From Candidatus Dojkabacteria bacterium (lineage in GTDB: Bacteria > Patescibacteriota > Dojkabacteria > B142 > OLB20): a stretch of 64,000 bases of DNA. Below, in pieces: positions 42,814 to 60,548 of this stretch (positions are counted from its first letter, which is position 1; each line of letters starts with the position of its first letter). The translations under genes and the position numbers were made by a program. The stretch is from contig JBHHUN010000005.1 in NCBI GenBank assembly GCA_046753765.1, positions 4,430-68,429 on the forward strand, given 5' to 3'. The notes beneath the pieces were generated by a model. That model had not been told where the DNA came from. It saw only the letters and a list, made by a program, of their open reading frames with translations, and made no database searches.

Positions 42814-43557
42814 ATGAAAGTTAACTATTGCGTAAAAGGCGAGGGAAGAACGATCATTCTACTGCATGGTTGGGGTGGATCTATCGGCAGCCTCGAGAAG
42901 TTGCAGCAGGAGCTTGCTGATATGGGCTTTCAGGTGTTTAATCTTGATCTGCCTGGCTTTGGCGACAGCGGGATCCCCGGAAAAGCCATGACACTTGATG
43001 ACTATGTTGAGTACCTTGATAAACTGGTCACGCGGTTAAATATATACAAACCGATCTTTGTTGGGCACTCGTTTGGGGGAAAGTTGGCAATGAAATATGC
43101 AATTAACAAACCAGGCACTTTATCAAATCTGGTTGTAATTGATGCGTCCGGGATAAACCCGCGCAACAGTGCTAAAAGGTCGCTACTGTATCTTCCTGCT
43201 AAGATTTTTGGTGCCGTCTTTGATCTTCCCGGATTAAAGCTGGTAAAGCCGATAGTACGAAAGCTTTTCTACAAGTTTGTTGTTCGGGAGCATGATTACG
43301 TGAAGTCGGACCATATAAGGCAGACCTTTCAAAACATAATTTCTGAGCATTTAGATGGTAAACTGGACCAGATTAAAACCGATACTCTTGTGATCTGGGG
43401 TGAGAAGGATACTGTCACACCGCTGTGGCAGGGGCAGCAACTTGCAAGCAAAATAGCTGGCTCACGTTTTGAGGTAGTCGAAGGTGCAAAACACTCGCTT
43501 CCACTTGAGATGCCCGAGGTTGTTGCCAGGATTATTTACAGCTATCTGAACAATTGA
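42814..43557 (+). CDS. Alpha/beta-fold hydrolase
   Basis: IILLHGWGGS and the nucleophile elbow GHSFGG. Confidence 0.8.
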   Translation: MKVNYCVKGEGRTIILLHGWGGSIGSLEKLQQELADMGFQVFNLDLPGFGDSGIPGKAMTLDDYVEYLDKLVTRLNIYKPIFVGHSFGGKLAMKYAINKPGTLSNLVVIDASGINPRNSAKRSLLYLPAKIFGAVFDLPGLKLVKPIVRKLFYKFVVREHDYVKSDHIRQTFQNIISEHLDGKLDQIKTDTLVIWGEKDTVTPLWQGQQLASKIAGSRFEVVEGAKHSLPLEMPEVVARIIYSYLNN

Positions 43558-45350
43558 TATCTATGTTGGCTTTAATGGCGCTACTCATATTTTTCCTGCT
43601 GCCGGCTTATTTGGTAGTCTTTCAGAACTTGCTCTGGTACATATATCTTTGGCAGATAAAGGAGTACCGTGTTGACAGGGTGTATTCACATTTCAGGTTT
43701 GAGGATAAGTTTGATCGCTCAAGTTTGAGCTTTCTCCTTATTAAGTTGGCTCTGGTTTTTACCTCAATGCTATACCTGTTTTTTCCGCGCAGCCTGGCAC
43801 TGTTGGTTACACCACTTCTGGCATTTGTTCTCTACCTTGCAATGCTTGAGCGTATGGCAAGAAATCTAATCGGACGAAGGCTGCAAAGGCCCGCAATCAA
43901 AAGCGCACGTAATATTTTGATTTTGCTGTGGAGTGTAGCCGTTCTACTTCTTCCCGCAGCGCTTTTATTTGGATGGCTCAGGAGTTTGCCTGTTCCGGTT
44001 GAACCTGTTGGAAGCCTGGTTGAGCTTGAGCAACAAACAAGTATAAACATCCTTCCTCTGCCTTTGATACTGATTGTTCTTGCTACCATAGTCGCGGTCA
44101 CTACTGATCTGTTGACTCATTTGGTTGTGTTTTTAGGTGTACTCTTAACAAATCCGATGGCATCCATCAAAAGAAGAGGTCTTATTAGAAAGGCAAAGCA
44201 GAAACTTGGACGAAGCAAGAAACTCAAGATAGTTGCAGTTACAGGCAGTTACGGAAAAACAACTACAAAAGAGCTCATCTATGAACTAGTTAAAGATACA
44301 TATACAACCGTAAAGACACCCGAGAATAAGAACACCGATGTTGGCATAGCCCAAACAATTCTGGAGAGTATCAATGAAAACACAGAAGTACTGATTGCCG
44401 AGATGGGGGCATACCATATCGGGGAGATTGCAGATTCAACAAGACTGGCACCACCAGATATTGCGGTTGTAACAGGAGTTGACCAGCAGCATATAAGTTT
44501 ATTTGGGACCATAGAAAACACGTTTAAAGCCAAGTTTGAGATTGTGCAGGGACTAAAGCCAGAGGGGATTGCAATTTTAAATGGTAATAACGAGTACACT
44601 TTGAACATGGCTGCAAAAACCGACAAGAAGAAGCTTCTGTATTTTGCGGTTGATAATACAAATTTTACCGTCACAGAGGTTGATGAGGAGAAACAGAGGG
44701 TTAAGTCAAAGTCCAAGTTTCCGGCAGATTCAAATCTCTATGCGACCACGATAGTTCAGACAAATGAGGGGATTGCGTTTGATCTTAAGTACAAAGGGGA
44801 GAAGCATCATGTTAAGACAAAGTTTAAGGCGTCTCACAATATTTCTAACCTTCTTGCTGCGGTTTCGGTTGCGGTAGAGCTTGGTGTCCCGGTTGAAAAG
44901 GTAGTTGGACGTATCCAGGAGGGTGAGCTGAGCGACAAGTATCTTGCAGTAGACGAGGGTTTAGGTGGGGCAACAATTATCGATGACGGATACAATTCAA
45001 ATCCAACTGGGTTTTTAGAGGCGCTTAAGTTTTTAAAGGGGTTTGAGACAAAAGGGAAGAGGTGGATTATGACTCAAGGGGTCATAGAGCTCGGTCAGGA
45101 GCAGGATAGCCTTTATGGAAGGTTTGCCGAGCAGATCGCTTCGAGCTCAGATGGCTTAATAACTTCAGACAAAGTTTTGGCAGAGGCCGTCAACGAGAAA
45201 AGCCCGAAGTTTCCTGTTTATCTGGTAAAATCCGGCCCGGGCTTTGTTGACACCTACACTCGCAGAGTTAATAAAGGTGACACTGTGTTAATAGAAGGAC
45301 GGTTCGAGCCGGTAACAATGGAGGCAATTACAAAATCAGAGGATGATTGA
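43554..45350 (+). CDS. murF: Mur-ligase family protein (MurF-like) with ~200-aa polytopic membrane N-terminal domain replacing the usual soluble N-domain
   Basis: Residues 1-200 hold about 5 TM helices. Then the Mur ligase ATP-binding motif VTGSYGKTTTKE and the C-terminal DDGYNSNPTGF. Confidence 0.65.
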   Translation: MISMLALMALLIFFLLPAYLVVFQNLLWYIYLWQIKEYRVDRVYSHFRFEDKFDRSSLSFLLIKLALVFTSMLYLFFPRSLALLVTPLLAFVLYLAMLERMARNLIGRRLQRPAIKSARNILILLWSVAVLLLPAALLFGWLRSLPVPVEPVGSLVELEQQTSINILPLPLILIVLATIVAVTTDLLTHLVVFLGVLLTNPMASIKRRGLIRKAKQKLGRSKKLKIVAVTGSYGKTTTKELIYELVKDTYTTVKTPENKNTDVGIAQTILESINENTEVLIAEMGAYHIGEIADSTRLAPPDIAVVTGVDQQHISLFGTIENTFKAKFEIVQGLKPEGIAILNGNNEYTLNMAAKTDKKKLLYFAVDNTNFTVTEVDEEKQRVKSKSKFPADSNLYATTIVQTNEGIAFDLKYKGEKHHVKTKFKASHNISNLLAAVSVAVELGVPVEKVVGRIQEGELSDKYLAVDEGLGGATIIDDGYNSNPTGFLEALKFLKGFETKGKRWIMTQGVIELGQEQDSLYGRFAEQIASSSDGLITSDKVLAEAVNEKSPKFPVYLVKSGPGFVDTYTRRVNKGDTVLIEGRFEPVTMEAITKSEDD

Positions 45351-46365
45351 ACAGGAAAAGATTACAGATAAGCATATTTGGGAGGAGTTTATCACTTCAA
45401 GTGGACTCCCTACCTCTTTTTTTCAGTCCTGGAACTGGGGGGAGTTTGAGAAAGAGAGGGGCTCCAAAATCCACAGACTCGGCTTTTACGATGCAGGTGA
45501 TCTGATCGGGATTGGTCTGGCCATCGAAACAGATGCAAAACGTGGACGGTATCTCCATTTCAGGAACGGGCCTGTGATTAACTGGAAAGATGACTTCTCT
45601 GCGCACGAGATTATGGGGCACATTTATAAGTATGGCAAAAAAGAGGGCGTTGATTTCATTCGTATCAGTCCACTTGTTGAGCCTGGAGCCATTGGTCAAT
45701 TCGTGATTAAGGGTTCAAATTACACAGAAAGTCAGATGCACGACGTTGATGCTGAGATCACATGGATGCTCGATCTGACTCAGCCACTTGGGAAAATCCA
45801 GGAGAATATGCGCAAGAATACACGCTACTATATCCGCAAGGCTGAGCGCGATGGTGTTGAAATAACGAGTACAACTGATGTTAAATACCTAAACGATTTC
45901 TGGAAGATCTATCAGGATACGGTAAAAAGGCAAAAGTGGACTGCATATAGCTTCGACTATATCAGAACTGAGTTCGAGAGGTTTAGCAGGGACAACCAGG
46001 CAAAACTGTATCTTGCGAAATATAAGGGGGCGTTTATTGCAGGCGCAATCTTCATCTATCACAACAATCAGGCCTACTACCATCATTCAGGAAGCCTGAC
46101 CAAGTACCGAAAGCTGTCCGCGCCTTACCTGCTGCAGTGGGAGTCGATTAAGGATGCCAAAAAGAGAGGATTAAAGCTTTATAACTTCTTTGGCATTGCC
46201 CGCGACGACAACCCCAACCACCCGTGGCACGGCCTTACCTTTTTTAAGAAGGGGTTCGGAGGGTGTGAACAGAGGTGGATTCATGCAAAGGACCTACCAC
46301 TGAAATTCCGTTACTGGCTCACGAATTTTTATGAGAGGTTGGAGAGGAAGAAGAGGGGTTACTAG
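45343..46365 (+). CDS. FemAB-family peptidyl/aminoacyl transferase (peptidoglycan interpeptide bridge formation type)
   Basis: 340 aa with a GNAT-like duplication pattern typical of FemABX, including FxxWNWGEF. Overlaps the murF-like stop by 8 nt. Confidence 0.55.
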   Translation: MIEQEKITDKHIWEEFITSSGLPTSFFQSWNWGEFEKERGSKIHRLGFYDAGDLIGIGLAIETDAKRGRYLHFRNGPVINWKDDFSAHEIMGHIYKYGKKEGVDFIRISPLVEPGAIGQFVIKGSNYTESQMHDVDAEITWMLDLTQPLGKIQENMRKNTRYYIRKAERDGVEITSTTDVKYLNDFWKIYQDTVKRQKWTAYSFDYIRTEFERFSRDNQAKLYLAKYKGAFIAGAIFIYHNNQAYYHHSGSLTKYRKLSAPYLLQWESIKDAKKRGLKLYNFFGIARDDNPNHPWHGLTFFKKGFGGCEQRWIHAKDLPLKFRYWLTNFYERLERKKRGY

Positions 46366-47737: not shown

Positions 47738-49231
47738 TTGGCACACGTAAGAACACGTTTTGCACCAAGCCCCACAGGCTCACTGCATATCGGTGGCATC
47801 CGGACAGCCCTCTACGCTTATGCTATGGCAAAAAAGCACGGTGGTGAGTTTGTGCTGCGAATAGAAGACACCGATCGCAATCGCTACGTTAAAGGCGCAG
47901 AAGAGGAGATCTTTGCTGTCCTTGAAGCGTACGGTCTTATCCCCGATGAAAGCACTAACCACGAAGGCAAGTTTGGCCCATATCGTCAATCTGACAGAAA
48001 AGAGGTCTATCTGAAGTATGCTCGCAAACTCGTAGAAAACGGTCACGCATATTATAGTTTCGAAACTAAAGAGGACCTTGATCAAATAAGAAAAAGGGCG
48101 ATGGAGAACAACGAAAGAGTTGTATATCGCTCATCTTACAGAGACCTCCCATTAGAGAAGGCGCTCGCAAAGGTGGAAGCAGGAGAAGAATACGTAATAA
48201 GGCAGAAGATGCCTGAGGGCGAAGAGGTCACTTACGTTGATCCCCTTCAGGGAAAGATGGCCTTCAAAACTGATGAGGTAGACGAAGGCGTGCTTCTAAA
48301 ATCCGACGGACTGCCGACATACCATCTAGCAGTTGTAGTTGATGATCACCTGATGCAGATAACACACGCATTCCGCGGGGTAGAGTGGATATCTAGCCTG
48401 CCAAAGCATATCTTGTTGTATAAAGCCTTCGGCTGGGAGATGCCGCAGTACGTGCATCTTTCACTCATACTCGACCCTGGCGGCGGAAAGCTCTCAAAAC
48501 GAAAAGGCACAGTTGCCGCTGGTACTTTCCTGGAAGAAGGCTATCTTCCCGAGGCGATGCTCAACTTCCTGATGCTTCTAGGCTGGTCGTCACCCGAAGA
48601 GCGAAAGCATGGCGAGCAAGAAAGAGAGCTATTCTCGCTGGATGAATTTGTTGAGATGTTTTCGATTGACGGCCTTAATAAGAGTAGCCCAACCTTCGAT
48701 AGAGAGAAGCTGCTTTGGTTTAACTCAAACTATCTGCAAAAAGCGGACACGAAAAAACTCGCAGAAGCCTTTATTAGTTGGCTGGAACGATACGCGAATG
48801 ATCCGGAGCTCTTGAAACTGATCGAAGAGAAAGACACGGACTTTCTTGAGAGGATATTGGTACTCGAACAACAGAGGGTCAAACTTCTCTCAGAGCTTCC
48901 CGGAGCGATAATGCTGTTTTATGGCCGCCCCGAGAAAGTGAGCCTGGACAAAGTTAAGCGTCTTAAAAAACTACCCCCTGAGATGGGGGACAAGATATTC
49001 ACTGAGTTTCTTGGAAAGCTTGCAGCACACGAGAGTTTCACAGATTGGGACCAGGAAAACTGGGAGCAGGATGTGAGAAGTATTGCAGATGGCCTAAAGC
49101 TTAAAGCGGGAGAGGTTTTTATGACGCTCCGCATCGGCGTAACCAGTTCAGATGTATCACCACCACTTTATGAAACAATGGAGATCCTTGGAAAAGAAGA
49201 GGTAACTGAGCGCTTAAAGCGATATCTTTAG
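47738..49231 (+). CDS. gltX: Glutamyl-tRNA synthetase (GlxRS)
   Basis: HIGH-type motif PSPTGSLHIGGIRTALYAY and KMSKS-type KLSKR. Confidence 0.9.
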   Translation: MAHVRTRFAPSPTGSLHIGGIRTALYAYAMAKKHGGEFVLRIEDTDRNRYVKGAEEEIFAVLEAYGLIPDESTNHEGKFGPYRQSDRKEVYLKYARKLVENGHAYYSFETKEDLDQIRKRAMENNERVVYRSSYRDLPLEKALAKVEAGEEYVIRQKMPEGEEVTYVDPLQGKMAFKTDEVDEGVLLKSDGLPTYHLAVVVDDHLMQITHAFRGVEWISSLPKHILLYKAFGWEMPQYVHLSLILDPGGGKLSKRKGTVAAGTFLEEGYLPEAMLNFLMLLGWSSPEERKHGEQERELFSLDEFVEMFSIDGLNKSSPTFDREKLLWFNSNYLQKADTKKLAEAFISWLERYANDPELLKLIEEKDTDFLERILVLEQQRVKLLSELPGAIMLFYGRPEKVSLDKVKRLKKLPPEMGDKIFTEFLGKLAAHESFTDWDQENWEQDVRSIADGLKLKAGEVFMTLRIGVTSSDVSPPLYETMEILGKEEVTERLKRYL

Positions 49232-50983
49232 ATGAAGTATCCTATTGGACTTATCACCGCCCTGATTTTTTTCACCGTCTCGGCTGTTGCAGCTCCGGTT
49301 GCAGCACAGAAGGCCACGGTCGAAAGCATCTCCACCGAAGTGACTTTTCACACCGACCTCACAGCATACGTTTCAACCACTCTCAAGCTTAAAAACAGGT
49401 CCGATCAGTATCTCCTTTCAGAGATTGCGTTTACTCTCCCAAGATCACCGCAAAATTTCAAGGCCAGGATAGACGACAGGTCAGTCTCCGCCGATATTAA
49501 AGGAAAAAAGGTTAATCTTAACCTTGGGTCTGGATCTATCGAGCTCAATCAAAAGGGGACGCTCGAGCTTGAGTATCAGTTGAAGGGTCTGGTTGAAGAC
49601 TTCGGAGTGATTAAAAGAATGAGTTGGCCCACAACAAGTTTCGCCCCTAAAAGAGGGGAACTTGGAAAGCTTGTGCAGAAAATCTCTTACCCATCAGAAT
49701 GGGGAGAGCTCACCTACAAATCAGGACAGCTCGAGAGTGAGCCTGGCATAGACGGTTTCACCTCTTTTTCTTCTACCACTGATGAAACGCTCAGTCTCGT
49801 TGCAGGTGGGTATACAAACGCAGAGCTCAGTATGGGTTGGCGGATCACTAATCAATTAGATGAGAGTATACGATTCAGGGTACCAGTTCCCGGAGAAAGT
49901 GTAGGGATGTTTAAGTTGGATAGCTATGAAGGTGCCAAGAGCGGTTTCATGGATGAAGAACAAAACAAGTTCCTGACTCTACATCTTGACTCAAATGTTG
50001 TGGCAGAGGGGAACTTCTCGGGAGTGTTTGGCAAAACAGGGTTTATGTTTAATGGAGAGGGAGATGGGCTTGTGCCCGACGGATTTCAGACAGACTGGCA
50101 ACAACTTGGAATCACAAAAGAAGATGCCGAAGGGATCTACAAAAAAATCTTAGAGAAACTTCACCCCAGTTTGATAAATAAGTTTAAAACGAGAAGCAAT
50201 GTGGCGGGCAGCCTATCAAAAGACGAGCACGACTCCCTCGATTACTCTAACCTGCTTGTTGCAGCGCTGCGTGGAAATGGAATCCAGTCAGAGATAGTTT
50301 TTGGTCTGGTGAACTTTCCTACAGACCAGACATACCATTGGCACTACTGGGTGGTTTATCGCGAAGGTAATCAGTGGAACCAGATAGATCCATTTCTCGA
50401 GGACCTCTCAGGCTTCGACTACTTCACACAGATTGATCAGCTGCGAATTCCCTGGGGTACAGTACCAAAAGACAATTCGACTGACAGCCTCGGCTTTAAT
50501 CATCTTGGGCTCACTAAAGATATCAAGTTTGATCCACCTGTAGTTGAGGGGGCTCAGCCCGACAGTGCAAAAGTCTTTGCATTGCTCGAGCTAACGGGAA
50601 ACGCGTACTCAGGGCAACCTCTCCCCCTGTTGCTTAGGGTAGTAAATGGCAGCAATGTGCCAGTTTCCTTAAGTGATATCTCAATCGAAAATGTGAAAGT
50701 TGCAACAGATGAAATTAACAGCTTCTGGATCATACCTCACACATCACAGCTCATTCAGGTTGATGAAATCAGTGTTAGTGATCCATTTTTCACTGGGGAG
50801 AAAACTGTCTCCGGTAGTATGAAAGTGCAACTGGATGATGAGACAAGGGTTCTGGATATCAGCCTCCCCCTTGATATTCAAGTGAATTATCAGATGCTTA
50901 GTGTGAATCTACTCATCCTTTTCCTTCTCTTAATTCTCGCTTCCGTCTTTGCCCGAAAAAGATTTCTCAATAAGGGGTTCTAA
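49232..50983 (+). CDS. Exported protein with transglutaminase-like core lacking the catalytic Cys (probable pseudo-enzyme), C-terminal TM anchor
   Basis: Signal peptide. DYSNLLVAALRGNGIQSEIVFGL resembles the TGase-core CxxFA...GIPAR motif with Cys replaced by Ser/Asn, followed by HYWVVY...WNQIDP. C-terminal TM LLILFLLLILASVFA. Confidence 0.4.
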   Translation: MKYPIGLITALIFFTVSAVAAPVAAQKATVESISTEVTFHTDLTAYVSTTLKLKNRSDQYLLSEIAFTLPRSPQNFKARIDDRSVSADIKGKKVNLNLGSGSIELNQKGTLELEYQLKGLVEDFGVIKRMSWPTTSFAPKRGELGKLVQKISYPSEWGELTYKSGQLESEPGIDGFTSFSSTTDETLSLVAGGYTNAELSMGWRITNQLDESIRFRVPVPGESVGMFKLDSYEGAKSGFMDEEQNKFLTLHLDSNVVAEGNFSGVFGKTGFMFNGEGDGLVPDGFQTDWQQLGITKEDAEGIYKKILEKLHPSLINKFKTRSNVAGSLSKDEHDSLDYSNLLVAALRGNGIQSEIVFGLVNFPTDQTYHWHYWVVYREGNQWNQIDPFLEDLSGFDYFTQIDQLRIPWGTVPKDNSTDSLGFNHLGLTKDIKFDPPVVEGAQPDSAKVFALLELTGNAYSGQPLPLLLRVVNGSNVPVSLSDISIENVKVATDEINSFWIIPHTSQLIQVDEISVSDPFFTGEKTVSGSMKVQLDDETRVLDISLPLDIQVNYQMLSVNLLILFLLLILASVFARKRFLNKGF

Positions 50984-51039: not shown

Positions 51040-51068
51040 TTGACAGAATTTGTTGTTTGAAACATAAT
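51040..51068 (+). promoter_or_regulatory. Candidate sigma-70 promoter (TTGACA-17-CATAAT) for the 51095 gene
   Basis: Perfect -35 at 51040-45, a 17-nt spacer, and -10 CATAAT at 51063-68, about 27 nt upstream of the ATG. Confidence 0.45.
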
Positions 51069-51094: not shown

Positions 51095-53692
51095 ATGGTA
51101 GGGAAGCCCAAGCAGTACGTAGTAAGTCTGTCACAGATCGATAAAGATGGCTCGAAGTTAGTAGGCGAAAGGGCCTTGTTACTGCGAGAGGTATCCGGCC
51201 ATGGCATTCCCGTTCCCTCCAGTTTTGTAATTACAACAGAAGCTTTCGACGACTTCATTATCGCTAACGACCTTGTTAGTTTTATCTCTGCGCATATCAA
51301 CGAAGTGGACTATACGAGCGAAAAGTCAGTTAGAAAAACTGCCAGCGCAATACAGTCAGCCATCGTTGAGGCAAAGGTGCCGGATCTTATTAAAAGTCCA
51401 CTTGAAAAGGTGTATTCCGGTATAGGAGGTCTGTTTGACGCCTTTGTCACCGTGCGGACATCTCCGGTTTTTCGCGAGCTGGATGAGGTTAACTACCACG
51501 AGCCCTACATAATCAACAATGTTAAGGGCAAGGGACACCTGCTCGACACTGCAAAAGAGCTCTGGGCAAGAATGTTTTCTCCTGAAGCACTGCTGTTCAG
51601 GGCAGCGCTTGGCTATGAGGGATCCATCACACAGGCACTGCTTGTCCAAAAGATGGTACAGGCAGAAGTATCAGGCAAAGTTTTTAGTGTTAACCCCGCG
51701 AATAACGACAAAGATGTCATTGAGGTTCAGGCAATTTTGGGCGTTAATGACCCCCAGGTATCTGCGGATCTGGTCCCCGACAGTTACTTTTACAACAAGC
51801 AGACAGAAGAGATTATTGAGAAAAAGATAGTTGGTCAGGATAACATGGTAGTCCGCAGAGGTCGAAGTCAAAATGGGAGTCCCAACACAAAAGTGGCGAT
51901 ATCTGAAATCTGGCAGAAAAAGCAAAAGATAGATGACCGCAACATAATTAATCTTGGTAGAATTACAAGTTTACTTGAACAGCTGTATAAGTCGGAGATA
52001 GAGATCGATTTTGCATTTGAGGCGGGAAGGCTCCAAGTGATCGAGATTACACCGATTGAAAAGGCAAGGACTGCCCGGAAGCTCAACATAGTAGAAGACC
52101 AGCTTCGACCGATCGTTGAGAAGTACCCGTCTATGGGGCAGAAGGTAAAACCTAGAAAACGAAATGTCAAAACAGCAGAAACTCCTGCAAAGGAGTCTGA
52201 TACGCCCAAGCAAAAAGAGAAAACGATGGATGATTATGTGAAAGAGGTTGAGAAAGCTCAGCAGGATGCACCGCTGCATCAGGAAAAACCAGATGGTGAT
52301 GTTAAATACGTCGGCGAAAAGATTGTGGTTGTTGTGAAGCCAAAGGATGAGCTTGACCAGATACTTGAAGGAACTGGCTGGGGAAAAGGGTTAAGCTTCG
52401 GTCTTGCACATTTTATATTGCAGGATGTTGACTGGCTTGGCCTTACAGGAGACGAGATTTTAGTAATTGAACGGTTGGACAAAAAACACTTGCAAGCAGT
52501 TAATAAATCAAAGGGCGTTGTCTTGAAGAGCGTGTTGAAAGAAGAAGAGTTACAGCTTATTAAAGTCCCAGTTCTCCACTCGGTGGACAAAGCGATGAAC
52601 GTGCTGCGCGAGAATGAGGTTATAACACTGGATCCTGAGGCTGGAGCTATCTACCTTGGTGCCGGGAAAGAACTTTCGGAGCAGCCTGAATCAGGTATAG
52701 ATCAGTCGGTTGCGACCGAAGGTGAAGGGGCGAAGGCAGAGAAAACGGCGCTGTTCCCCCGCCCGGTGATCCAGGAGGTAGTAGCGGAGCAGAAAAACGT
52801 CATAGAGACAACAGGTAAATTCTGGCAGATTTACAGTCCAGATGACCCCAAAGTTGAGCTACTCCATAGCAACGGAATGTTTATTGATCTCTCAAGATTT
52901 TACAAATCAGCGGGCTTGAGCCCCGAATACCTCCTGAGTGAACCGGATCAGCGCAGGGGATTTATGAAGAGTGTGATAACAGTTCTGGTACCCATGCTTC
53001 AGCAGCTCGAAAACAGGCAGGCAATACTGCAGGCAAGTGATATTCCACTCGAGGAGTTAAAACATCTAAAAGGCAGTGACCGCATGAACTACGATCATCG
53101 CTTTCTGTCAGGTGCTGGCAAGTTTGCAGCTGATCCAAATCTACTAAACATGGAGCTTGAGATACTGAGTATCCTCCGTAACCGCGAGTCTCTTAGGAAT
53201 TTATGGTTTTCAATACCAAGAGTTAATACAGCAAGTGAGCTCTCCGAAACAAAGAAAATAGTTTCATCATATGGATTTAGAAGATCTTCAACCTTTAAAT
53301 TGCTGGCGACAGTTTCAACTTCTCTTTCGGCGGTGTCAATTAAATCTATCGTTGAGAATGATGTCGATGGAGTTATTTTCGACTATGACAGTATAATGGA
53401 GGATCTGCTTGGACGTGGTGAGTACGAAATCGATGATAACCTAACGAAATTTTTCACCTGGCTGATCGAGACAGTAAATACAAACAGGGCAAAACCGTAT
53501 CTGTTGAATCACAAATACAGAATAGAAAAAGCTGCCCTAAGAGGTATGCTTGAAAAAGGGCTGAACAATTTTATCTTGACAAGGGATCAACTTTATCCTC
53601 ATAAACTGCTAATATCGAGTCTGGAAGTAAAAAGGATAGGAGTTAAAAAGAAACGTGGCAGAAAGAAGAAAAGGATCGATTACGGGTTTTAA
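51095..53692 (+). CDS. PEP synthase/PPDK N-terminal (ATP-grasp nucleotide-binding) domain protein with degenerate PEP-utilizer phospho-His domain and long unique C-terminus
   Basis: N-terminus VVSLSQIDKDGSKLVGERALLLREVSGHGIPVPSSFVITTEAF ... ALLVQKMVQAEVSGKVFSVNP ... IEIDFAFEAGRLQVIEITPI follows the PPDK_N pattern. A later segment (GVVLKSV ... IKVPVLHSVDKAMNVLRENEVITLDPEAGAIYLG) resembles the PEP-utilizers mobile domain but lacks the TSHAA His motif. Confidence 0.55.
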   Translation: MVGKPKQYVVSLSQIDKDGSKLVGERALLLREVSGHGIPVPSSFVITTEAFDDFIIANDLVSFISAHINEVDYTSEKSVRKTASAIQSAIVEAKVPDLIKSPLEKVYSGIGGLFDAFVTVRTSPVFRELDEVNYHEPYIINNVKGKGHLLDTAKELWARMFSPEALLFRAALGYEGSITQALLVQKMVQAEVSGKVFSVNPANNDKDVIEVQAILGVNDPQVSADLVPDSYFYNKQTEEIIEKKIVGQDNMVVRRGRSQNGSPNTKVAISEIWQKKQKIDDRNIINLGRITSLLEQLYKSEIEIDFAFEAGRLQVIEITPIEKARTARKLNIVEDQLRPIVEKYPSMGQKVKPRKRNVKTAETPAKESDTPKQKEKTMDDYVKEVEKAQQDAPLHQEKPDGDVKYVGEKIVVVVKPKDELDQILEGTGWGKGLSFGLAHFILQDVDWLGLTGDEILVIERLDKKHLQAVNKSKGVVLKSVLKEEELQLIKVPVLHSVDKAMNVLRENEVITLDPEAGAIYLGAGKELSEQPESGIDQSVATEGEGAKAEKTALFPRPVIQEVVAEQKNVIETTGKFWQIYSPDDPKVELLHSNGMFIDLSRFYKSAGLSPEYLLSEPDQRRGFMKSVITVLVPMLQQLENRQAILQASDIPLEELKHLKGSDRMNYDHRFLSGAGKFAADPNLLNMELEILSILRNRESLRNLWFSIPRVNTASELSETKKIVSSYGFRRSSTFKLLATVSTSLSAVSIKSIVENDVDGVIFDYDSIMEDLLGRGEYEIDDNLTKFFTWLIETVNTNRAKPYLLNHKYRIEKAALRGMLEKGLNNFILTRDQLYPHKLLISSLEVKRIGVKKKRGRKKKRIDYGF

Positions 53693-53743: not shown

Positions 53744-56700
53744 ATGATGCGACTTAAAACTCTGGCCGTATACTTGCTGAGTGCCTTGATTGTGTTGGGC
53801 ACTAACGTTATCCTTCTTCCGGTAAATAATGTCTCTGCACAATCTGAACCGGATGGTGCCGAAGAAGTTTTAGATCGTGCCGATGAGTACGATCTCGACC
53901 ATCTGTTTGTCAAATACAAAAATAGCGATGAACCTCAGTTGGTAGAAGTTGATCCTGCAAGCAATGGTCAGATAACGGTATTTTCGGAGAGTAATAAGTA
54001 TGATGGCGACATCGTCGAAAAGCAAGAGCGGCTCGCCGATAAATTCAATCAGCTTCTCGATAACCCGAGAGTTGAATACGTTCAACCTCAATACATTTAT
54101 TCAATTGGAGCCTGGAGCCGAAGCGGGACACAGGATACACCAGACGATTTTGATACGACATCACCGTATAACCATTGGTACTACGACGCATCTAATGTTC
54201 GCGAGATGTGGCAGGATCAGGACTGTCAGGGGGGCGGTGCAGGTTGTGGTGGAGATTCAAATGCTACTGTTGCTGTAATTGATACTGGCTTGGCATACGA
54301 ATCCAGAACTTCGGCCTGGGGAGACAGCTTTGCCCCAAATGATGACATGTTCGGAGGCAGTAATATCAATCTTTATACCAATACTGCTGAAATCAATGGC
54401 GATGCGGGCACCAACTGTTTTGATGAGATAGACGATGATGGTAATGGTTTTGTCGATGATTGCTATGGTTTTAATTCAGCAGAATACATCTACTGTTCCT
54501 TCACTACATCCTGCACAACAACCCAGGAGGCAGAGATGGGTCATCCAAATGATGATGGTGGACACGGAACATACGTAACTGGTCTAATAGCTTCGTTGGT
54601 GGATAACAACCTGGGGAGTGTCTCTCCTGCACATAATGTGACGATAATGCCGATCAAAGCTTCGTTTTTCCACTCCGGCTCGTTTGGTTCTATGGAGCTG
54701 TGGTGGGCGATTGACTATGCAGTTAATCAAGGGGCAGATGTTATTAATCTGAGCCTTGCTGGCCCTACCTTTGATCAGGGGTTGTCCGATAAGCTCCAGT
54801 GGGCAAAAGATAATGGGGTGACAGTTGTGGCAGCAACTGGAAATACTAACTCCAGCGTTTACTATCCAGCAGCTTTTGACTCTGTTATTGCTGTAGGAGC
54901 GGTAAGGCCAAATGGAACCCGAGCTTTTTATTCCAACTATGGGACTGATATTGATATCACTGCCTATGTCGGGAATGGAGGGGGGATAGGGGATACTGTC
55001 TATCAACGGAGTTATACCTGTTTCTTCCTTAATCCGAACTGCTATTCAACAAACGCGTATACCACATTTTCAAATGGTTATGGAATCGGTACCTCTTATG
55101 CGTCACCACAAGTTGCAGCGATGGTCGCGTTAATAATTTCTGCCAAGCCATCGATCACCAGGCAGGGAATAGATAACCACTTATTTGGCGATGCGACAGA
55201 TCTTGGTACAGTTGGCTGGGATAATCAGACAGGGTGGGGAGTAATCGATTTTGAAAAGACGTACAAAAATGTTTCCAGCAATGGAGCACCCACTTTGGCA
55301 ATCCTTGAGCCAAATGGAGTAGGTGATACTGGAGATACGTCTTTTAATATTACGTGGACAGACAGTGACCCTGACGATGATGCGGTGATCAATTTCTACA
55401 GGGATAATGATGGCGCCGGATTTGATGGCGTATTGATAAGCGGATGTGATAACATTGCCCAGTCAGCTGCTTCGGATACATGCAAATTCGACACAAGACC
55501 GCTGCCAGCAGATGATTACTACATCTACGGTTGCATAACTGACTATGTTAATCCACTCGACTGTAGCTACGGCGGAGGACCTATCACAATATCTCACACC
55601 CCCATCAGGGAGTTTGGTTTAGCTGTTGTCAGTACCGATTGGGTGCCAATATCGTTTCAGAAGACATACAGTGATCCGCCAATAGTATTCGCAGAGGTAT
55701 CAAGCGAGAATGGAACCAACAAGATATTTGCAGACATTAGAAACGTTACTTCCGCGGGCTTCGAAGTCAGGATAGAGGAGAACACAATGTCGGGATGGAA
55801 TGGGATACACGGAAACGAGGATATAAGCTGGTACGCAGTTCAAAGCAATACAGGAGCAGAAAAAGTTGGTGAATCCGTGATAAATACTGACTGGGTGAGT
55901 ATTGACTTTCTGACATCCTTTGCCAGCATTCCAGAGCTATTCGTCATGGTGCAGTCAGAGAATGGTGGCAATATTGTTTATGCTGATGTTAGAAATGTGA
56001 GTACAACAGGATTCGATGTCAGACTCGAAGAGCCAGTCGGTTGGAACGGGCTCCATTCAGATGAATCGGTTGGGTGGATTGCGTTTGAAACAAATCCCGT
56101 AACAGGCGGGCAGGAGGGCAAAGCCACAACGGATCAGGATTGGAGTACAGTATCTTTTACTCCAGCTTTTTCCGAGCCACCAGTGTTAATAGTCTCTGTT
56201 GATACGGAAAATGAGGGGAATTACGTAAATGCGGATATTCGTAACCTGGATGCAAACGGATTTGAGTTTATGATGGAGGAAGATATCCTAATCCAGAATG
56301 GTATCCATGGAGATGAGACCGTGAGCTGGGCTGCGTTTCCACTGAGTACAATCAATTCACAATCCGGAACCGTATCTATAAATAGTAACTGGACAGAGAT
56401 ATATTTTCCACAATCATTTGAGTCAAAACCGAAAGTTTTTGTTGAGATAAATACAGAAAACGGACAAGACACAGCTGAGGTAGACATAAAAGATGTAATG
56501 CCGTATTCATTTACGGCCAGGATAGAAGAAGATAAGCTTGCGGGTTGGGGAGCTGGCGGACACACTACAGAAACCATCACATGGTACGCAATTTTAAATC
56601 CCGGTTCGGGTGAACAGGTTGGAAATAGCAGCGTAGACCACAATTGGAAGACCGTAACCTTTTCCTCACCGTTTACTTCTACTCCAAAAGTCTTTGCGGA

Positions 56701-57100
56701 TGTGCAAACAGAAAACGGTGGTCAGACTGCAGCAGTCGATATGAAAAATATAACGACGACCGCATTCGAGGTCAAAGTAGAAGAGGATCCAAGAGCCGGA
56801 TATGATGGAAACCATGCGGTCGAAACTGTCTCATGGCTCGCGTTTGAGACACCCTCAATGGGAGAGACAGGTACAGTAGCTGTAGATCAGGACTGGACAG
56901 CGGTGGATCTGAGCAGCTTTGGTTTCAGCGGTGTGCCTAAATTACTGGCTGACATTCAGACCGAGAACGGAACCCACACTGTTCAGGTTGATATTCGAAA
57001 TCTCTCCAGTACCGGGTTTGATGTAAGAATGGAAGAGGAACCCAGGATATGGGATGGACTTCATGCTCTGGAAACGGTTTCTTGGCTGGCTTGGGAATAG
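53744..57100 (+). CDS. Secreted subtilisin-like serine protease (S8) with N-terminal propeptide-like region, Ig/FN3-like spacer and six C-terminal ~82-aa tandem repeats (possibly H-type-lectin-like)
   Basis: Signal peptide. S8 triad contexts TVAVIDTGLAYE (Asp), HGTYVTGLIAS (His), GTSYASPQVAAMVALI (Ser), and a calcium-loop-like EIDDDGNGFVDD. Six repeats of the pattern DxxW-x-V-x-F-(P/S)-x-F-x-P-x-V(F/L)...(Q/N)TENGG...VD(I/M)(R/K)N(V/I/L)(T/S)xxGF(E/D)V(R/K)(I/V/L/M)EE...G-x-H-x-(D/E)-x-(V/I)-(S/T/G)-W-(Y/L/I/A)-A-(V/F/I/W). Confidence 0.75.
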   Translation: MMRLKTLAVYLLSALIVLGTNVILLPVNNVSAQSEPDGAEEVLDRADEYDLDHLFVKYKNSDEPQLVEVDPASNGQITVFSESNKYDGDIVEKQERLADKFNQLLDNPRVEYVQPQYIYSIGAWSRSGTQDTPDDFDTTSPYNHWYYDASNVREMWQDQDCQGGGAGCGGDSNATVAVIDTGLAYESRTSAWGDSFAPNDDMFGGSNINLYTNTAEINGDAGTNCFDEIDDDGNGFVDDCYGFNSAEYIYCSFTTSCTTTQEAEMGHPNDDGGHGTYVTGLIASLVDNNLGSVSPAHNVTIMPIKASFFHSGSFGSMELWWAIDYAVNQGADVINLSLAGPTFDQGLSDKLQWAKDNGVTVVAATGNTNSSVYYPAAFDSVIAVGAVRPNGTRAFYSNYGTDIDITAYVGNGGGIGDTVYQRSYTCFFLNPNCYSTNAYTTFSNGYGIGTSYASPQVAAMVALIISAKPSITRQGIDNHLFGDATDLGTVGWDNQTGWGVIDFEKTYKNVSSNGAPTLAILEPNGVGDTGDTSFNITWTDSDPDDDAVINFYRDNDGAGFDGVLISGCDNIAQSAASDTCKFDTRPLPADDYYIYGCITDYVNPLDCSYGGGPITISHTPIREFGLAVVSTDWVPISFQKTYSDPPIVFAEVSSENGTNKIFADIRNVTSAGFEVRIEENTMSGWNGIHGNEDISWYAVQSNTGAEKVGESVINTDWVSIDFLTSFASIPELFVMVQSENGGNIVYADVRNVSTTGFDVRLEEPVGWNGLHSDESVGWIAFETNPVTGGQEGKATTDQDWSTVSFTPAFSEPPVLIVSVDTENEGNYVNADIRNLDANGFEFMMEEDILIQNGIHGDETVSWAAFPLSTINSQSGTVSINSNWTEIYFPQSFESKPKVFVEINTENGQDTAEVDIKDVMPYSFTARIEEDKLAGWGAGGHTTETITWYAILNPGSGEQVGNSSVDHNWKTVTFSSPFTSTPKVFADVQTENGGQTAAVDMKNITTTAFEVKVEEDPRAGYDGNHAVETVSWLAFETPSMGETGTVAVDQDWTAVDLSSFGFSGVPKLLADIQTENGTHTVQVDIRNLSSTGFDVRMEEEPRIWDGLHALETVSWLAWE
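55625..57097 (+). repeat. Six in-frame tandem ~82-aa domain repeats within the first S8 protein
   Basis: Repeats begin at VSTDWVPISF, INTDWVSIDF, TDQDWSTVSF, INSNWTEIYF, VDHNWKTVTF, VDQDWTAVDL and each ends with VSW/ITW + A. Confidence 0.7.
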
Positions 57101-57116
57101 TTAATACTATAAACAC

Positions 57117-60100
57117 ATGTTGTTTGTACGAAGACATTTACCTCTAATTGTATTTTCATTATTCTGGATTTTTGCAGCCGGAGCGCTGTTTATGTTGTCG
57201 GATTGGAACGTAACAGGGCAGGTTCTGGTAGGAAATCAGGCTAAAGCCAGAGAGATTGTCAATCGCAGCAGGGATTTTGACCTGAACAATGTGGTTGTTG
57301 TCTATAAAGACGAGCCGGATGAGGTAAGGCTAATCTCTGTTTCCGATACCGTCGAGACACGATCTTCAGGAGAGAGAACCGAGATAGCTGACCTCTACAT
57401 CACTGGTGAGATTGATCCCGACCTTTTTGAAATACAACAGAAGAAATCCAGGCTCGAACAAAAGATATACGATCTGCTCGAGGACGAGAGCGTGCTCCAC
57501 GTTCAGCCTCAATACATCTACCACACGAATTCATGGGGACGCTCTGGCAGTCAGGATACCCCTGATGACTTTGATACGATTTCGCCAACTACTGGTGAGC
57601 ACTGGTACTACGAGATGGCCCACCTTCGTGAAATGTGGCAGGACCAGGATTGTTTTGGTAGCGGGCCAAATTGCGGAGGAAATACCGGAGGCGTAGTTGC
57701 TGTAATAGACACAGGGCTGGCATATGAGACAAGAAAATCAGCATGGCAGGATAATTTTGCAAAGAACGATGATATGTTCAACGGAACCAGTATCACTCTC
57801 TATACCAACGCGGGAGAGATACCTAATAACCTTATTGACGATGATGGTAACGGTTACCGAGATGATTACAACGGCTTCAACGCCGACGATTACGTTTTTT
57901 GTCTCCCCCCCGAACCTCAGGATCCACCGTGTACGACCGCAGAGTGGGCCGAGGAGGGGCATGCTTACGACGATGACGGGCACGGAACATACACAACCAG
58001 CATGATAGCTTCATTGGTAGATAACACTTTTGGTAGTGTATCCCCGGGGTTCAATCTCACGATAATGCCAATTAAGGCCTCTGATTTTCACTCACCCAGT
58101 TTTGGTACGGCTGAGCTTGTTGCCGCTATTGACTACGCCATGAACAACGGTGCCGATGTAATAAATATGAGTCTTGGCGGGCCGACTGATGATCCTGTAT
58201 TGAGCGCCAAAATCGACGAGGCAGTTGCAGCAGGCGTATTTGTTGTCGCTGCAAGTGGTAATGGGGGAGGTGCTGTAGGGTATCCAGCAGCAAACACAGG
58301 CACATTTGCAGTTGGCGCCGTTGCTGCCGATGATGCCAGGGCTTGTTACTCCAGTTTTGGAGCAGAACTTGATATGGTGGCCTATGTTGGTGACGGTGAT
58401 GGTTCGTGCCCTATCTCTGTTATAGGAGAGGGGACGGCGGCTTATCAAAGAACTTACTCCTGTTTTTTCACTTCGCCCGACTGTAATGATCTAGGTGGCA
58501 GTGAAGACTACGAGACGTTTTCGACAAGCTATAGTCTTGGTACATCATTTGCCGCTCCGCAGGTATCTGCGATGGCAGGAATCCTAAGAGCGATTGGCCC
58601 AAGCACGCCAGTTTCAGAGCTTGAATCTATCCTTATAGGTAATGCAACCGACCTAGGGCCCGCAGGGTTTGATACTGCTACCGGCTATGGTGTTTTGGAT
58701 TGGGAGGCGACATTTGCAGCTGCTATTGCCAGTGAAGCACCGACCTTATCGGTCATAGAGCCAAATGGGGTCGGCGATGGTGCAGATGCATCATTTAACA
58801 TCACCTGGACTGATACAGACTCTGATAACGACGCAGCAATCAACTTCTATTACGATCTTGACTCCTCAGGGGAGGATGGAACCTTAATAGCAGACTGCTC
58901 TAACATTAGTGAGGACGATGAAACAGACAGTTGTACGTGGGATATGCGGTTTATGCCCGAAGACGACTATTACATCTATGGATGCATTGCAGACTTCTTT
59001 AACCCTGTAGATTGCAATAACTACGGCGCTGGTCCAATAACTTTAACTCACGCTGTTAAACGCGACTGGAACACACATACTGTAACTACAAGCTGGAGAA
59101 CTATCAGTTTTACAACCAGTTTTGACACTGTTCCAATAGTAAGTGCACAGATTACATCAGAATGGGGAAGGGATAGAATCTATCTGGATGTAAAAGATGT
59201 AACTATAAGTGGGTTTAGTACACGAATACGAGAAAACACTGTTACAGGATGGAATGGTGGTCATGGAAGTGAGGAGTTGAGCTGGTACGCTGTTCAAAGC
59301 ACCAGTACGGGAGAAATTGTAGGTCAGATAGATCTCACTGGCCCGGGATGGACTAGTGTAACTTTTCCACAGGCATTCGGGTCAACGCCTCATGTGTTTG
59401 CTAACCTTCAAACCCAGAACGATACAGCGATCGCCTATGTTGATCTGAGAAACATCACAACCACGGGTTTTGAAGCCAGGATAGAAGAGCCGACGGGGCT
59501 TGCAAATGACCACGCAACAGAAACGGTTGGCTGGGTGGCATTCAGTGATCACCCCGATGCTGAAGAGGGCAGTGTTATAGCGAATCATGTGCGCAAGACT
59601 GTGACATATGCTACTTCGTTTACTGCACCACCTGTGCTGCTAGCGCAGATTCAGACCAACAACGACGGAAGAAGATCAACGGTCGATGTAGGCGGAACAA
59701 AGGACTACCGCAGCAGGCTTTGGGTAGGAGAGGATACGAAAGTGCATGATGGAATTCATGATAACGAAACAATAAGCTGGGCGGCGTTCCCTTATACACC
59801 GCCTAACGATGTAGGAGTTGCTCAGTCCCTCACTGACGACTGGACAGAATACCCATTCGACCAGCCCTTTGAGGACACGCCAAAGATGTTCGCTGATATT
59901 AACTCTGAAAATGGGACGGACACAGTAGATGTTGACCTGAGAAAAATTACAAGGCGTAGCTTTCAAGCCAGGATTGAGGAGGATCCGAAGGCGGGATGGA
60001 ACAACAAACACATGGACGAGGATATAACCTGGTATGCTTTTTATATAAGACCCACAGGTAGCAAAAACGGTAACCTAACCACAAATCAAAACTGGACTAA

Positions 60101-60548
60101 CTCTGGAATAGGTGGTGGCGGATTTGGTTCGACACCGATGGTGTTTGCCGAGATTCAAACAGATAATGGAGGTGATACGGCAGCAGTAGATGTTAAGGCT
60201 ATCACCCCGACAGGCATGAAGCTCAGAGTAGAAGAGGATAAAGTAGCTGGCCATAACGGCAATCACACAAATGAAACAATCTCATGGTGGGGTTTCACAT
60301 CTGCACCCTTCGGTCAAGCGGGTCTGGATTCAGTTGATCACAACTGGAAAACGGTAACATTTCCGATTGCGTTTAGTACCGTCCCCAAATTGCTTTTTGA
60401 AGTAAACAGTGAAAATGGCGGGCAAACAGCTATGGTAGATGTACGCAACATCACTACTGCTGATTTTGAAGTGAGAGTGGAGGAAGAGCCAAAAAGATAC
60501 GATGGGAGCCATGCTTTCGAAGATGTGGTCTGGCTCGCCTGGGAGTAA
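57117..60548 (+). CDS. Paralogous secreted S8 subtilisin-like protease with the same architecture (six C-terminal ~82-aa repeats)
   Basis: Only 16 bp after the first copy. VVAVIDTGLAYE, HGTYTTSMIAS, GTSFAAPQVSAMAGIL and DDDGNGYRDD. Six repeats ending at VVWLAWE, the same C-terminal end as copy 1 (VSWLAWE). Confidence 0.75.
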   Translation: MLFVRRHLPLIVFSLFWIFAAGALFMLSDWNVTGQVLVGNQAKAREIVNRSRDFDLNNVVVVYKDEPDEVRLISVSDTVETRSSGERTEIADLYITGEIDPDLFEIQQKKSRLEQKIYDLLEDESVLHVQPQYIYHTNSWGRSGSQDTPDDFDTISPTTGEHWYYEMAHLREMWQDQDCFGSGPNCGGNTGGVVAVIDTGLAYETRKSAWQDNFAKNDDMFNGTSITLYTNAGEIPNNLIDDDGNGYRDDYNGFNADDYVFCLPPEPQDPPCTTAEWAEEGHAYDDDGHGTYTTSMIASLVDNTFGSVSPGFNLTIMPIKASDFHSPSFGTAELVAAIDYAMNNGADVINMSLGGPTDDPVLSAKIDEAVAAGVFVVAASGNGGGAVGYPAANTGTFAVGAVAADDARACYSSFGAELDMVAYVGDGDGSCPISVIGEGTAAYQRTYSCFFTSPDCNDLGGSEDYETFSTSYSLGTSFAAPQVSAMAGILRAIGPSTPVSELESILIGNATDLGPAGFDTATGYGVLDWEATFAAAIASEAPTLSVIEPNGVGDGADASFNITWTDTDSDNDAAINFYYDLDSSGEDGTLIADCSNISEDDETDSCTWDMRFMPEDDYYIYGCIADFFNPVDCNNYGAGPITLTHAVKRDWNTHTVTTSWRTISFTTSFDTVPIVSAQITSEWGRDRIYLDVKDVTISGFSTRIRENTVTGWNGGHGSEELSWYAVQSTSTGEIVGQIDLTGPGWTSVTFPQAFGSTPHVFANLQTQNDTAIAYVDLRNITTTGFEARIEEPTGLANDHATETVGWVAFSDHPDAEEGSVIANHVRKTVTYATSFTAPPVLLAQIQTNNDGRRSTVDVGGTKDYRSRLWVGEDTKVHDGIHDNETISWAAFPYTPPNDVGVAQSLTDDWTEYPFDQPFEDTPKMFADINSENGTDTVDVDLRKITRRSFQARIEEDPKAGWNNKHMDEDITWYAFYIRPTGSKNGNLTTNQNWTNSGIGGGGFGSTPMVFAEIQTDNGGDTAAVDVKAITPTGMKLRVEEDKVAGHNGNHTNETISWWGFTSAPFGQAGLDSVDHNWKTVTFPIAFSTVPKLLFEVNSENGGQTAMVDVRNITTADFEVRVEEEPKRYDGSHAFEDVVWLAWE
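59070..60545 (+). repeat. Six in-frame tandem ~82-aa domain repeats within the second S8 protein
   Basis: Repeats begin at NTHTVTTSWRTISF, LTGPGWTSVTF, ANHVRKTVTY, LTDDWTEYPF, TNQNWTNSGIGGGGFGSTPMVF, VDHNWKTVTF. Confidence 0.65.

Follow-up and report, generated by a model that had tools for sequence, protein, structure and literature searches.

The closest described counterparts of the protein considered here are phosphoenolpyruvate (PEP) synthase (PpsA), pyruvate phosphate dikinase (PPDK) and, for its N-terminal domain, the rifampin phosphotransferase RPH-Lm. In RPH-Lm, the substitution Lys22Ala abolishes activity, with the same position (Lys22) being implicated in binding of the ATP γ-phosphate in PPDK, and the α-phosphate is held by Arg117 and Thr136 (PMC4844700). 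For the other end of the protein, the nearest likeness is the RGR tripeptide that forms the minor-groove-inserting signature of the AT-hooks of HMGA1 and of the bacterial silencers Lsr2 and Bv3F (PMC8476142). The host lineage, Dojkabacteria (WS6), branches deeply within the candidate phyla radiation (CPR) and has an extremely reduced metabolism, and reductive evolution is ongoing in CPR genomes; PEP synthase appears in the paper describing this metabolism in its reference list only (PMC7304191). In the literature searched, we found no description of PpsA pseudoenzymes or of AT-hook proteins in Patescibacteria. Here, we analyze a 64,000-nucleotide stretch of a Candidatus Dojkabacteria genome (contig JBHHUN010000005.1; hereafter "the window"), in which an intact open reading frame (ORF) at 51095–53692 on the + strand, from its ATG start through its stop codon, encodes an 865-residue PEP-synthase-like protein that we call PPSL.

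An entry derived from a Candidatus Dojkabacteria metagenome-assembled genome (MAG) matches the protein at 100% identity; NCBI gives this entry only the name "PEP/pyruvate-binding domain-containing protein". The automatic annotation at JGI names proteins of this type "phosphoenolpyruvate synthase/pyruvate phosphate dikinase", and because of such names, metabolic reconstructions of Dojkabacteria could wrongly credit PPSL with a PEP-synthesizing, gluconeogenic step. We consider it probable, if only just, that PPSL is instead a pseudoenzyme descended from PpsA and kept for a structural or regulatory role as a scaffold, with an AT-hook-like C-terminal tail as its tether, and we are more confident that the protein is non-catalytic than we are of this reading as a whole.

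Fold, Domain Order, and Active-Site Residues

PPSL is a full-length homolog of PEP synthase with its domains in the canonical order of ATP-grasp, swivel and TIM barrel, because phmmer, Foldseek searches with an AlphaFold2 (AF2) model, and hhalign all agree on the identity of the C-terminal barrel. A Pfam scan of the protein returns PPDK_N only (residues 22–333, E = 8e-43), which bears out the ATP-grasp domain of the PPDK/PEP synthase type that a preliminary description of this locus, made from the sequence alone, had placed at the N-terminus. The NCBIfam PEP synthase model matches residues 6–522, thus reaching through the mobile domain, and a pyruvate kinase C-terminal model matches residues 422–525 (E = 3e-9). 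In the phmmer comparison, residues 479–846 align with residues 460–826 of the archaeal (Staphylothermus) PEP synthase 9dae (overall E = 4e-35), and a profile–profile alignment by hhalign of 20 PPSL family members against 12 canonical three-domain PEP synthases spans residues 3–823 of the query and 4–804 of the template (probability 100%, E = 2e-45, 723 aligned columns). At the level of structure, Foldseek matches the PPSL model to the Neisseria meningitidis PEP synthase 2ols over its full length (E = 2e-38), the C-terminal block to the PEP-binding TIM barrels of 9dae_A (TM-score 0.76, root-mean-square deviation 3.0, 304 columns) and 8a8e_A (TM-score 0.78), and the ATP-grasp domain to the rifampin phosphotransferase 5hv6_A (TM-score 0.88, 22% identity). 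The last ~300 residues, which had been taken to be unique to this protein, are in fact a diverged PEP-utilizers_C TIM barrel by all three methods. The equivalog models for PEP synthase score far below their cut-offs, at 181.7 bits versus 598 for NF005057 and 168.9 bits versus 739.75 for TIGR01418.

The AF2 model has a mean predicted local distance difference test score (pLDDT) of 78.9, with confident folded blocks at residues 1–325, 412–527 and 551–847 and disordered segments at residues 326–411, 528–550 and 848–865. On the + strand of the window, the ATP-grasp (PPDK_N; PF01326) fold with its degenerate nucleotide-phosphate site occupies 51095–52069; the swivel-like fold, which corresponds to the mobile domain of PEP-utilizers and was located by models, AF2 and hhalign, lies at 52328–52675; and the degenerate TIM barrel lies at 52745–53635. 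Between the first two folds (52070–52327) lies a K/E/P-rich linker of ~85 residues (326–411), which has a pLDDT of <50 except for a helix at residues 379–389, has no counterpart in canonical PpsA, and shows a pairwise identity of 0.21 in the clade. Within this poorly conserved linker, a D-x-Y-V-x-E-[VI] motif at about residues 379–385 (52232–52249, +) is predicted to form an isolated helix; it recurs, in the form D-x-Y-V-x-E-V, in 16 of the 28 proteins that end in ID[YF]G[FY], and it may be a linear docking motif.

To compare the catalytic residues, we used an alignment of 117 relatives grouped by motif, including 51–52 canonical sequences and 23 members of the PPSL clade. In the canonical set, the Lys of GGK, the Arg of VRSS, the Glu of DIEW, the Gln and Arg of VQxRP, the His of TSH and the Cys of CGQ are all invariant, as are the Arg, Arg, Glu, and Asn-Asp positions of the TIM barrel, which, together with the Cys, we take to be the PEP/pyruvate site known from PPDK and PpsA. 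In PPSL, GGK has become GER (residues 25–26), DIEW has become EIDF (303–306), and VQxRP has become IEITP (316–320), and the clade as a whole does not settle on any replacement. The position of the GGK Lys, R26 in PPSL, is Arg in six clade members, Glu in three, Lys in two, Leu in nine, and Phe, Thr and Ser in one each; that of the VQxRP Gln, E317 in PPSL, is mostly Asp (10 of 23), Glu (5) or Asn (4), with others; that of the VQxRP Arg, T319 in PPSL, is variable or a gap; and that of the DIEW Glu, D305 in PPSL, is Asp, Glu, Ser or Asn. Similarly, Thr136 of RPH-Lm (the Thr of ETYLN) falls opposite P137 or I139 of PPSL, depending on the alignment, and is Pro or Ile in the clade. As the preliminary description had it, NYHEP (residues 133–137; 51491–51505, +) stands in the alignments in place of the canonical SFAGQ. 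The conservation check on the ATP-grasp catalytic residues that it had proposed leaves R121, the equivalent of RPH Arg117 and of the VRSS Arg, as the sole ATP-site residue that is largely retained (17 of 23 clade members).

The swivel-like domain lacks the phospho-acceptor His, again as had been described, and its loop is also shorter by four residues. Where canonical enzymes have TD-GG-R-TSH-AAIVSRELGIP, PPSL reads VLKSVLKEEELQ----LIKVP, and the remnant of this loop corresponds to residues 474–492 (GVVLKSVLKEEELQLIKVP; 52514–52570, +). The hhalign alignment puts the canonical phospho-His opposite K482, the GG-x-T-S-H-A-A pattern is absent from the PPSL loop (KSVLKEEELQ), and no position of the loop is conserved among orthologs. 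At the PEP site, the Arg residues of GLxRxE, VRxSD and RGxxRY are replaced by L599, Q646 and G673/F677, respectively, and the Glu of MxExP, the Asn-Asp of GSND and the Cys of CGQ by S/V, D/Y and L/N, all at positions that are unconserved in the clade. The residues of the catalytic face, at the C-terminal ends of the barrel strands, are likewise variable. A new conserved pocket in the barrel was rejected: the residues conserved in the clade (R695, N696, N702, RRSST at 729–733 and D758–G759) either sit where strands start, at their N-terminal ends, or occur in canonical enzymes too, as judged from clade conservation and the secondary structure of the AF2 model. Judged from these alignments, all three active sites of the PPSL clade are degenerate, with key residues lost or variable. 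The suggestion that PPSL falls outside the classical PEP-utilizing enzymes, and may be a pseudoenzyme, has thus gained support, since the catalytic His, the ATP-site residues and the PEP-site residues are all lost or unconserved.

Conservation, Grades of Degeneration, and the C-Terminal Tail

Searching 1.84 billion cluster representatives with a family profile gave 2,810 matches at E values up to 1e-30, from which we assembled the 160 top-scoring proteins of at least 550 residues, made up of the first 22 homologs and the best representatives at 50% identity. When sorted by regular expressions, at least 131 of these 160 are His-less and lack all three motif classes, with intact ORFs. On average, pairs of clade members have an identity of 0.46 in the ATP-grasp domain, 0.47 in the swivel and 0.34 in the TIM barrel, compared with 0.18–0.21 in the two linkers and 0.75 in the 18-residue tail, the best-conserved segment of the protein; intact ORFs of ~850 residues persist in relatives down to 28–35% identity. 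This pattern indicates that the three PpsA folds are kept under purifying selection. In one genome, that of WS6 bacterium OLB20, a tblastn match to PPSL residues 1–860 (locus L011, 8004–10732) yields an extracted frame that ends after 554 residues; this copy may be frameshifted or misassembled. A homolog of an enzyme family, with its catalytic residues gone and its intact gene conserved across lineages, is what is operationally called a pseudoenzyme, and we infer from these features that PPSL is inactive.

We examined how these forms are distributed over the 80 best genome loci of GTDB representatives (labelled L001 and so forth), with taxon labels as they stand in the records, where several of the "uncultured Saccharibacteria/Gammaproteobacteria" MAG labels may be unreliable. 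Every Dojkabacteria-labelled locus among these 80 carries a His-less form, and the canonical forms come from other lineages, which suggests, short of proof, that the phylum lacks canonical PpsA. Of ten representative clusters checked for taxonomy, the single one with a name belonged to Dojkabacteria. The sequences can be arranged in grades, starting from canonical PpsA in MAGs labelled Woesebacteria, Microgenomates, Berkelbacteria, Chloroflexota and others, and followed by L014, in which the His is retained and the Cys lost. In a third grade, L012 and L013, the His is replaced by Tyr, and the ATP-site residues are retained, with all three Pfam domains detectable; the catalytic-His site reads KDSYETI in L012 (7986–10490) and RDSYAQI in L013 (5231–7726), and both genes lie in the same type of neighborhood as PPSL, with gltX and a transglutaminase-like gene. 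These two loci appear to represent a step on the way from enzyme to pseudoenzyme. The fourth grade, class B (~20 loci), carries Asp in place of the His (GGITSDTA) and retains the ATP-site Lys, Arg, Gln and Lys. Its members may be working enzymes whose phospho-acceptor has changed. Class B genes, always located between a gene for an AI-2E family transporter and mutS, occur in Dojkabacteria-like genomes (for example L036, 7920–10499, and L055, 5850–8444), where the loop with the Asp reads GGITSDTAILCRE. Degeneration goes furthest in the PPSL clade, which alone among the grades has a basic hook at its C-terminus. In a rough neighbor-joining tree, class B groups with the hook clade and both are separate from the canonical sequences, although this tree is distance-based and long-branch effects are possible.

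The hook itself is the disordered polybasic segment at residues 848–865 (53636–53689, +; pLDDT <50), which is built around an RGR core and ends in IDYGF. The lysine-rich C-terminal tail pointed out previously, KKKRGRKKKRIDYGF, makes up residues 851–865 of this segment. Across the clade, the 18-residue consensus is KKKRGRKKKxID[YF]G[FY], in which the R-G-R core is invariant, and among 28 proteins ending in [IV][DNT][YF]G[FY], the residues K-13, G-11, R-10, K-7 and G-2 do not vary. Tails of relatives include KRGRPAKKLK (with a true GRP core), VGRPQKSLW and RGRKIKDLF. Basic G[RP][KRP] tails are found in 58 of the 131 fully degenerate representatives, compared with none of 29 partly intact and none of 18 canonical ones, and hence the tail appears to track the loss of catalysis, with the hook exclusive to His-less forms. 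A degenerate DNA pattern for KKRGRK[KR]KxID[YF]G[FY] followed by a stop gave eight matches in JGI metagenomes, all eight in PPSL family members, and a tail of this type is absent from every other ORF of the window; on these results, a tail shared with other protein families was rejected. Two further candidate features were set aside. The "GF" C-terminus common to PPSL and the upstream transglutaminase-like protein is not kept in orthologs. The bacterial β-clamp-binding consensus, QL[SD]LF or QLxLxL, is a C-terminal penta- or hexapeptide led by Gln, with hydrophobic residues at position 2 and positions 4–6. The K-I-D-[YF]-G-[FY] end of the tail has no Gln and is unlike the Q[FY]PLF of MutS from related genomes, leaving clamp binding as a very distant prospect.

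Genomic Neighborhood and Competing Explanations

A promoter-like site of the sigma-70 type, TTGACA-17-CATAAT (51040–51068, +), lies 26 nt 5′ of the PPSL ATG and is the top-scoring site of a scan of 47–64 kb; it is a consensus match only (11 of 12 positions), and the total count of promoter-like sites over the scanned region is not above that of shuffles. Farther upstream, gltX (47738–49231, +), encoding glutamate–tRNA ligase (TIGR00464, 485 bits, above cut-off), is conserved, being co-directional with PPSL in 11 of the 18 His-less class-A loci. It is followed by a gene for a transglutaminase-like (TG-like) protein (49232–50983, +; a weak Pfam Transglut_core match of 27 bits) with a signal peptide, a C-terminal transmembrane anchor, and a length of ~530–645 residues across orthologs. 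A TG-like ortholog lies upstream and co-directional in 10 of the 18 loci; it adjoins PPSL in eight of these (gaps of 32–171 nt) and lies ~2 kb upstream in the remaining two, L012 and L013. The direct pairs reach down to ~33% PPSL identity, and at the P0018 locus, where PPSL is 28% identical, an unaligned protein of TG-like topology occupies the same upstream position. The TG-like protein of the window contains no cysteine at all, and in six orthologs, the site of the catalytic Cys is D/E/Q-Y, with the His (WHxW) and the Asp (DPF) kept. On account of these substitutions, it is apparently non-catalytic as well, and would be a second pseudoenzyme beside PPSL. Its AF2 model, with one homolog aligned, has a pLDDT of 42, too low to be of use. 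Still farther upstream (43554–46365, +), genes for a Mur-ligase-like protein (598 residues) and a FemAB-family protein (340 residues) overlap by 8 nt, and this pair is conserved 5′ of gltX in L001–L003, L007, L008 and L011.

Downstream of PPSL are two tandem genes for secreted proteins of ~1,100 residues (53744–57100 and 57117–60548, +), each combining a subtilisin S8 domain with 2–4 H-type lectin domains, which are unusual in bacteria. These are followed by a gene for a 519-residue Amidase_2 protein (60624–62183), and the same trio recurs in L001/L007 and L011. The first S8 gene has a TATAAT box of its own upstream (TGTATAAT) and encodes a signal peptide. The preliminary description had placed PPSL at the head of a protease locus and suggested a functional link. 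The position holds for the window, but the gene order is kept only in the closest relatives. S8/lectin genes lie 3′ of PPSL only in the window, in L001/L007 and, at a distance of 3.7 kb, in L011, with SpaA/sortase, MFS or opposite-strand sigma-factor genes found downstream in other clade members. Since these genes follow PPSL only in its closest relatives, the proposed link is not conserved, and in the co-occurrence check, they turned up downstream in few loci only, such that the case for it is weak. An operon or functional link between PPSL and the S8/H-lectin genes as a conserved association was rejected over six homolog contigs and 80 genome loci.

Taking PPSL to be a pseudoenzyme with a scaffold role, its history would be one in which a descendant of PpsA lost phosphotransfer, with the three folds staying in place, and the residues binding the ATP phosphates and Mg, the His, and the PEP/pyruvate residues drifting among orthologs. 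The clade would then have gained the long disordered linker with its short conserved helix, the second disordered linker and the invariant tail. The tail would most likely act as an AT-hook-like anchor to polyanions, with its RGR core inserting into the DNA minor groove, or the tail binding RNA or an anionic membrane surface, and the aromatic motif at its end could provide a docking peptide. For the ligand, we infer a ranking with nucleic acid first, given the RGR and GRP cores, an anionic membrane second, because of the envelope-type neighbors and the terminal hydrophobic residues, and a protein-docking role third. Several observations weigh against this picture. The conserved neighbors (gltX, the membrane TG-like protein and often the Mur ligase/FemAB pair) point to the envelope and translation rather than to DNA. 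R26 and R121 of PPSL are still basic, and the adenine-hinge segment VQKMVQAEVSG is as conserved in the clade as it is in active enzymes, on which account PPSL may still bind nucleotide without turnover. The 160 representatives were sorted by regular expressions. The PPSL tail has Lys in place of the Pro of RGRP, ends in a hydrophobic ID[YF]G[FY] that is no feature of AT-hooks, and gives no match to Pfam AT_hook (PF02178) at E values up to 10, and even the KRGRPAKK tail of a relative scores 13.7 bits, below the cut-off of 17.4. Because the RGR core is invariant but the Pro is replaced and the Pfam model fails, we describe the tail, from its sequence, as AT-hook-like rather than classing it with the AT-hooks proper.

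It is conceivable, albeit speculative, that the His-less, RGR/GRP-tailed PpsA homologs of Dojkabacteria form an unrecognized class of nucleic-acid-tethered architectural proteins. In this lineage of minimal metabolism, the large enzyme shell, which probably dimerizes through its TIM barrel as its forebears do, would have been put to use as a scaffold on the chromosome or on RNA, and the gain of the hook would have gone together with the loss of catalysis. Equally tentative is a peripheral-membrane scaffold of the cell-envelope machinery, which would bind anionic lipids through the polybasic tail and the hydrophobic I, Y/F and F, with the adjacent membrane-anchored TG-like protein and, in this genome, the secreted S8/H-lectin proteases and the amidase as possible partners. 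The direct, co-directional pairing of TG-like and PPSL genes in 8 of the 18 class-A loci (10 with L012 and L013) and the presence of Mur ligase and FemAB upstream in many loci are consistent with this, and a basic cluster followed by aromatic residues recalls unstructured membrane-targeting tails. Conversely, the tail forms no amphipathic helix and has three hydrophobic residues only, the GRP-core tails of relatives resemble DNA hooks, gene order within a single phylum may mirror inheritance rather than function, and the S8/lectin genes are downstream in three lineages only.

Were PPSL instead an active, diverged ATP-grasp kinase or ligase acting directly on a non-canonical substrate, without a phospho-His relay, as the preliminary description preferred, the well-kept ATP-grasp fold (with its Pfam E value of 8e-43 and TM-score of 0.88 to 5hv6_A), the retention of R121 in 17 of 23 members and the conserved QKMV..E.SG hinge would be readily understood, as would the related His-less lineages that keep their ATP-site residues (GRK...LQSK in class B, where His is Asp, and L012/L013, where it is Tyr). 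We nevertheless regard this as improbable for the clade, where the Lys22 equivalent varies among R/E/K/L/F/T/S and is Leu in nine members and Glu in three of 23, at a position where the Lys22Ala substitution abolishes RPH activity (PMC4844700). Moreover, the clade has lost the Gln and Arg of QxRP, carries Ser, Asn or Asp for the DIEW Glu and Pro or Ile for Thr136, and shows no other conserved residues at the catalytic face of the TIM barrel that could make up a pocket instead. An ordinary PEP synthase or rifampin phosphotransferase homolog, its motifs masked by divergence, would account for the three-domain order and the full-length homology. However, of the two features by which the preliminary description would have recognized such an enzyme, only the canonical domain order is present: phmmer, MAFFT and hhalign all find the phospho-acceptor site without a His and with the four-residue deletion, there is no Cys or Arg at the PEP site, the NCBIfam equivalogs are far under their cut-offs (182 versus 598 bits for PpsA and 104 versus 999 for Rph), and the swivel of RPH is C-terminal rather than central (PMC4844700), so that we regard this possibility as already refuted. 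Scarcely more credible is a decaying pseudogene or functionless relic. The loss of all catalytic sites would suit it, as would the reductive evolution of CPR genomes (PMC7304191), but ORFs of ~850 residues remain intact down to 28–35% identity, there are more than 100 His-less representatives at 50% identity, the folded domains are far better conserved than the linkers, the tail is nearly invariant, and the AF2 model is confident.

If PPSL is indeed a pseudoenzyme, then a costly protein of ~860 residues is being kept for a non-catalytic job, and the homologs would provide a clean natural series from enzyme to scaffold, running from canonical forms through those with His replaced by Tyr or Asp and an intact ATP site to dead forms with a basic hook. 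Such a series would be useful both for understanding the origins of pseudoenzymes and for finding the cell-biological machinery of CPR bacteria.

Comparison with Known Systems

Among characterized proteins, PpsA (the archaeal multimeric enzymes 9dae and 8a8e and N. meningitidis 2ols) shares with PPSL the same three folds, in the same order, and homology over the full length. PPSL differs from PpsA in having neither the phospho-His, nor the GGK Lys, nor the Mg/phosphate-binding Glu, Gln and Arg, nor the PEP-site residues, and in possessing the extra disordered linker of ~85 residues and the added polybasic RGR tail. RPH-Lm (5hv1, 5fbs) and the ATP-grasp relatives PigC, RedH and HpeI are the best structural match for the PPSL ATP-grasp domain (5hv6_A). 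RPH, however, carries the swivel domain with its His at the C-terminus, has a domain for RIF binding where PPSL has the TIM barrel, and it relies on Lys22, Arg117, Thr136 and His825, of which PPSL keeps the Arg117 equivalent only (PMC4844700). In line with this, the Rph model NF041857 reaches 104 bits against a cut-off of 999, and does so over PPSL residues 7–321 only, with the swivel of PPSL being central.

Class B and L012/L013, His-less PpsA homologs of Dojkabacteria and Patescibacteria, share with the PPSL clade a His-less PpsA ancestry and the TIM-barrel derived motifs RRS[ST]TFK and LRN...RN, and hold a sister or neighboring position in the rough neighbor-joining tree. Unlike PPSL, they keep the ATP-site Lys, Arg, Gln and Arg/Lys, their swivel is detectable by Pfam, and they have no RGR tail. 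For that tail, the nearest parallel is provided by the AT-hooks (RGRP in HMGA1; RGR in Lsr2 and Bv3F), which likewise present R-G-R within Lys/Arg flanks in a disordered segment (PMC8476142). The PPSL tail departs from these in having Lys for Pro, in its lack of a match to Pfam AT_hook and in the extra ID[YF]G[FY], and its binding to DNA is putative.

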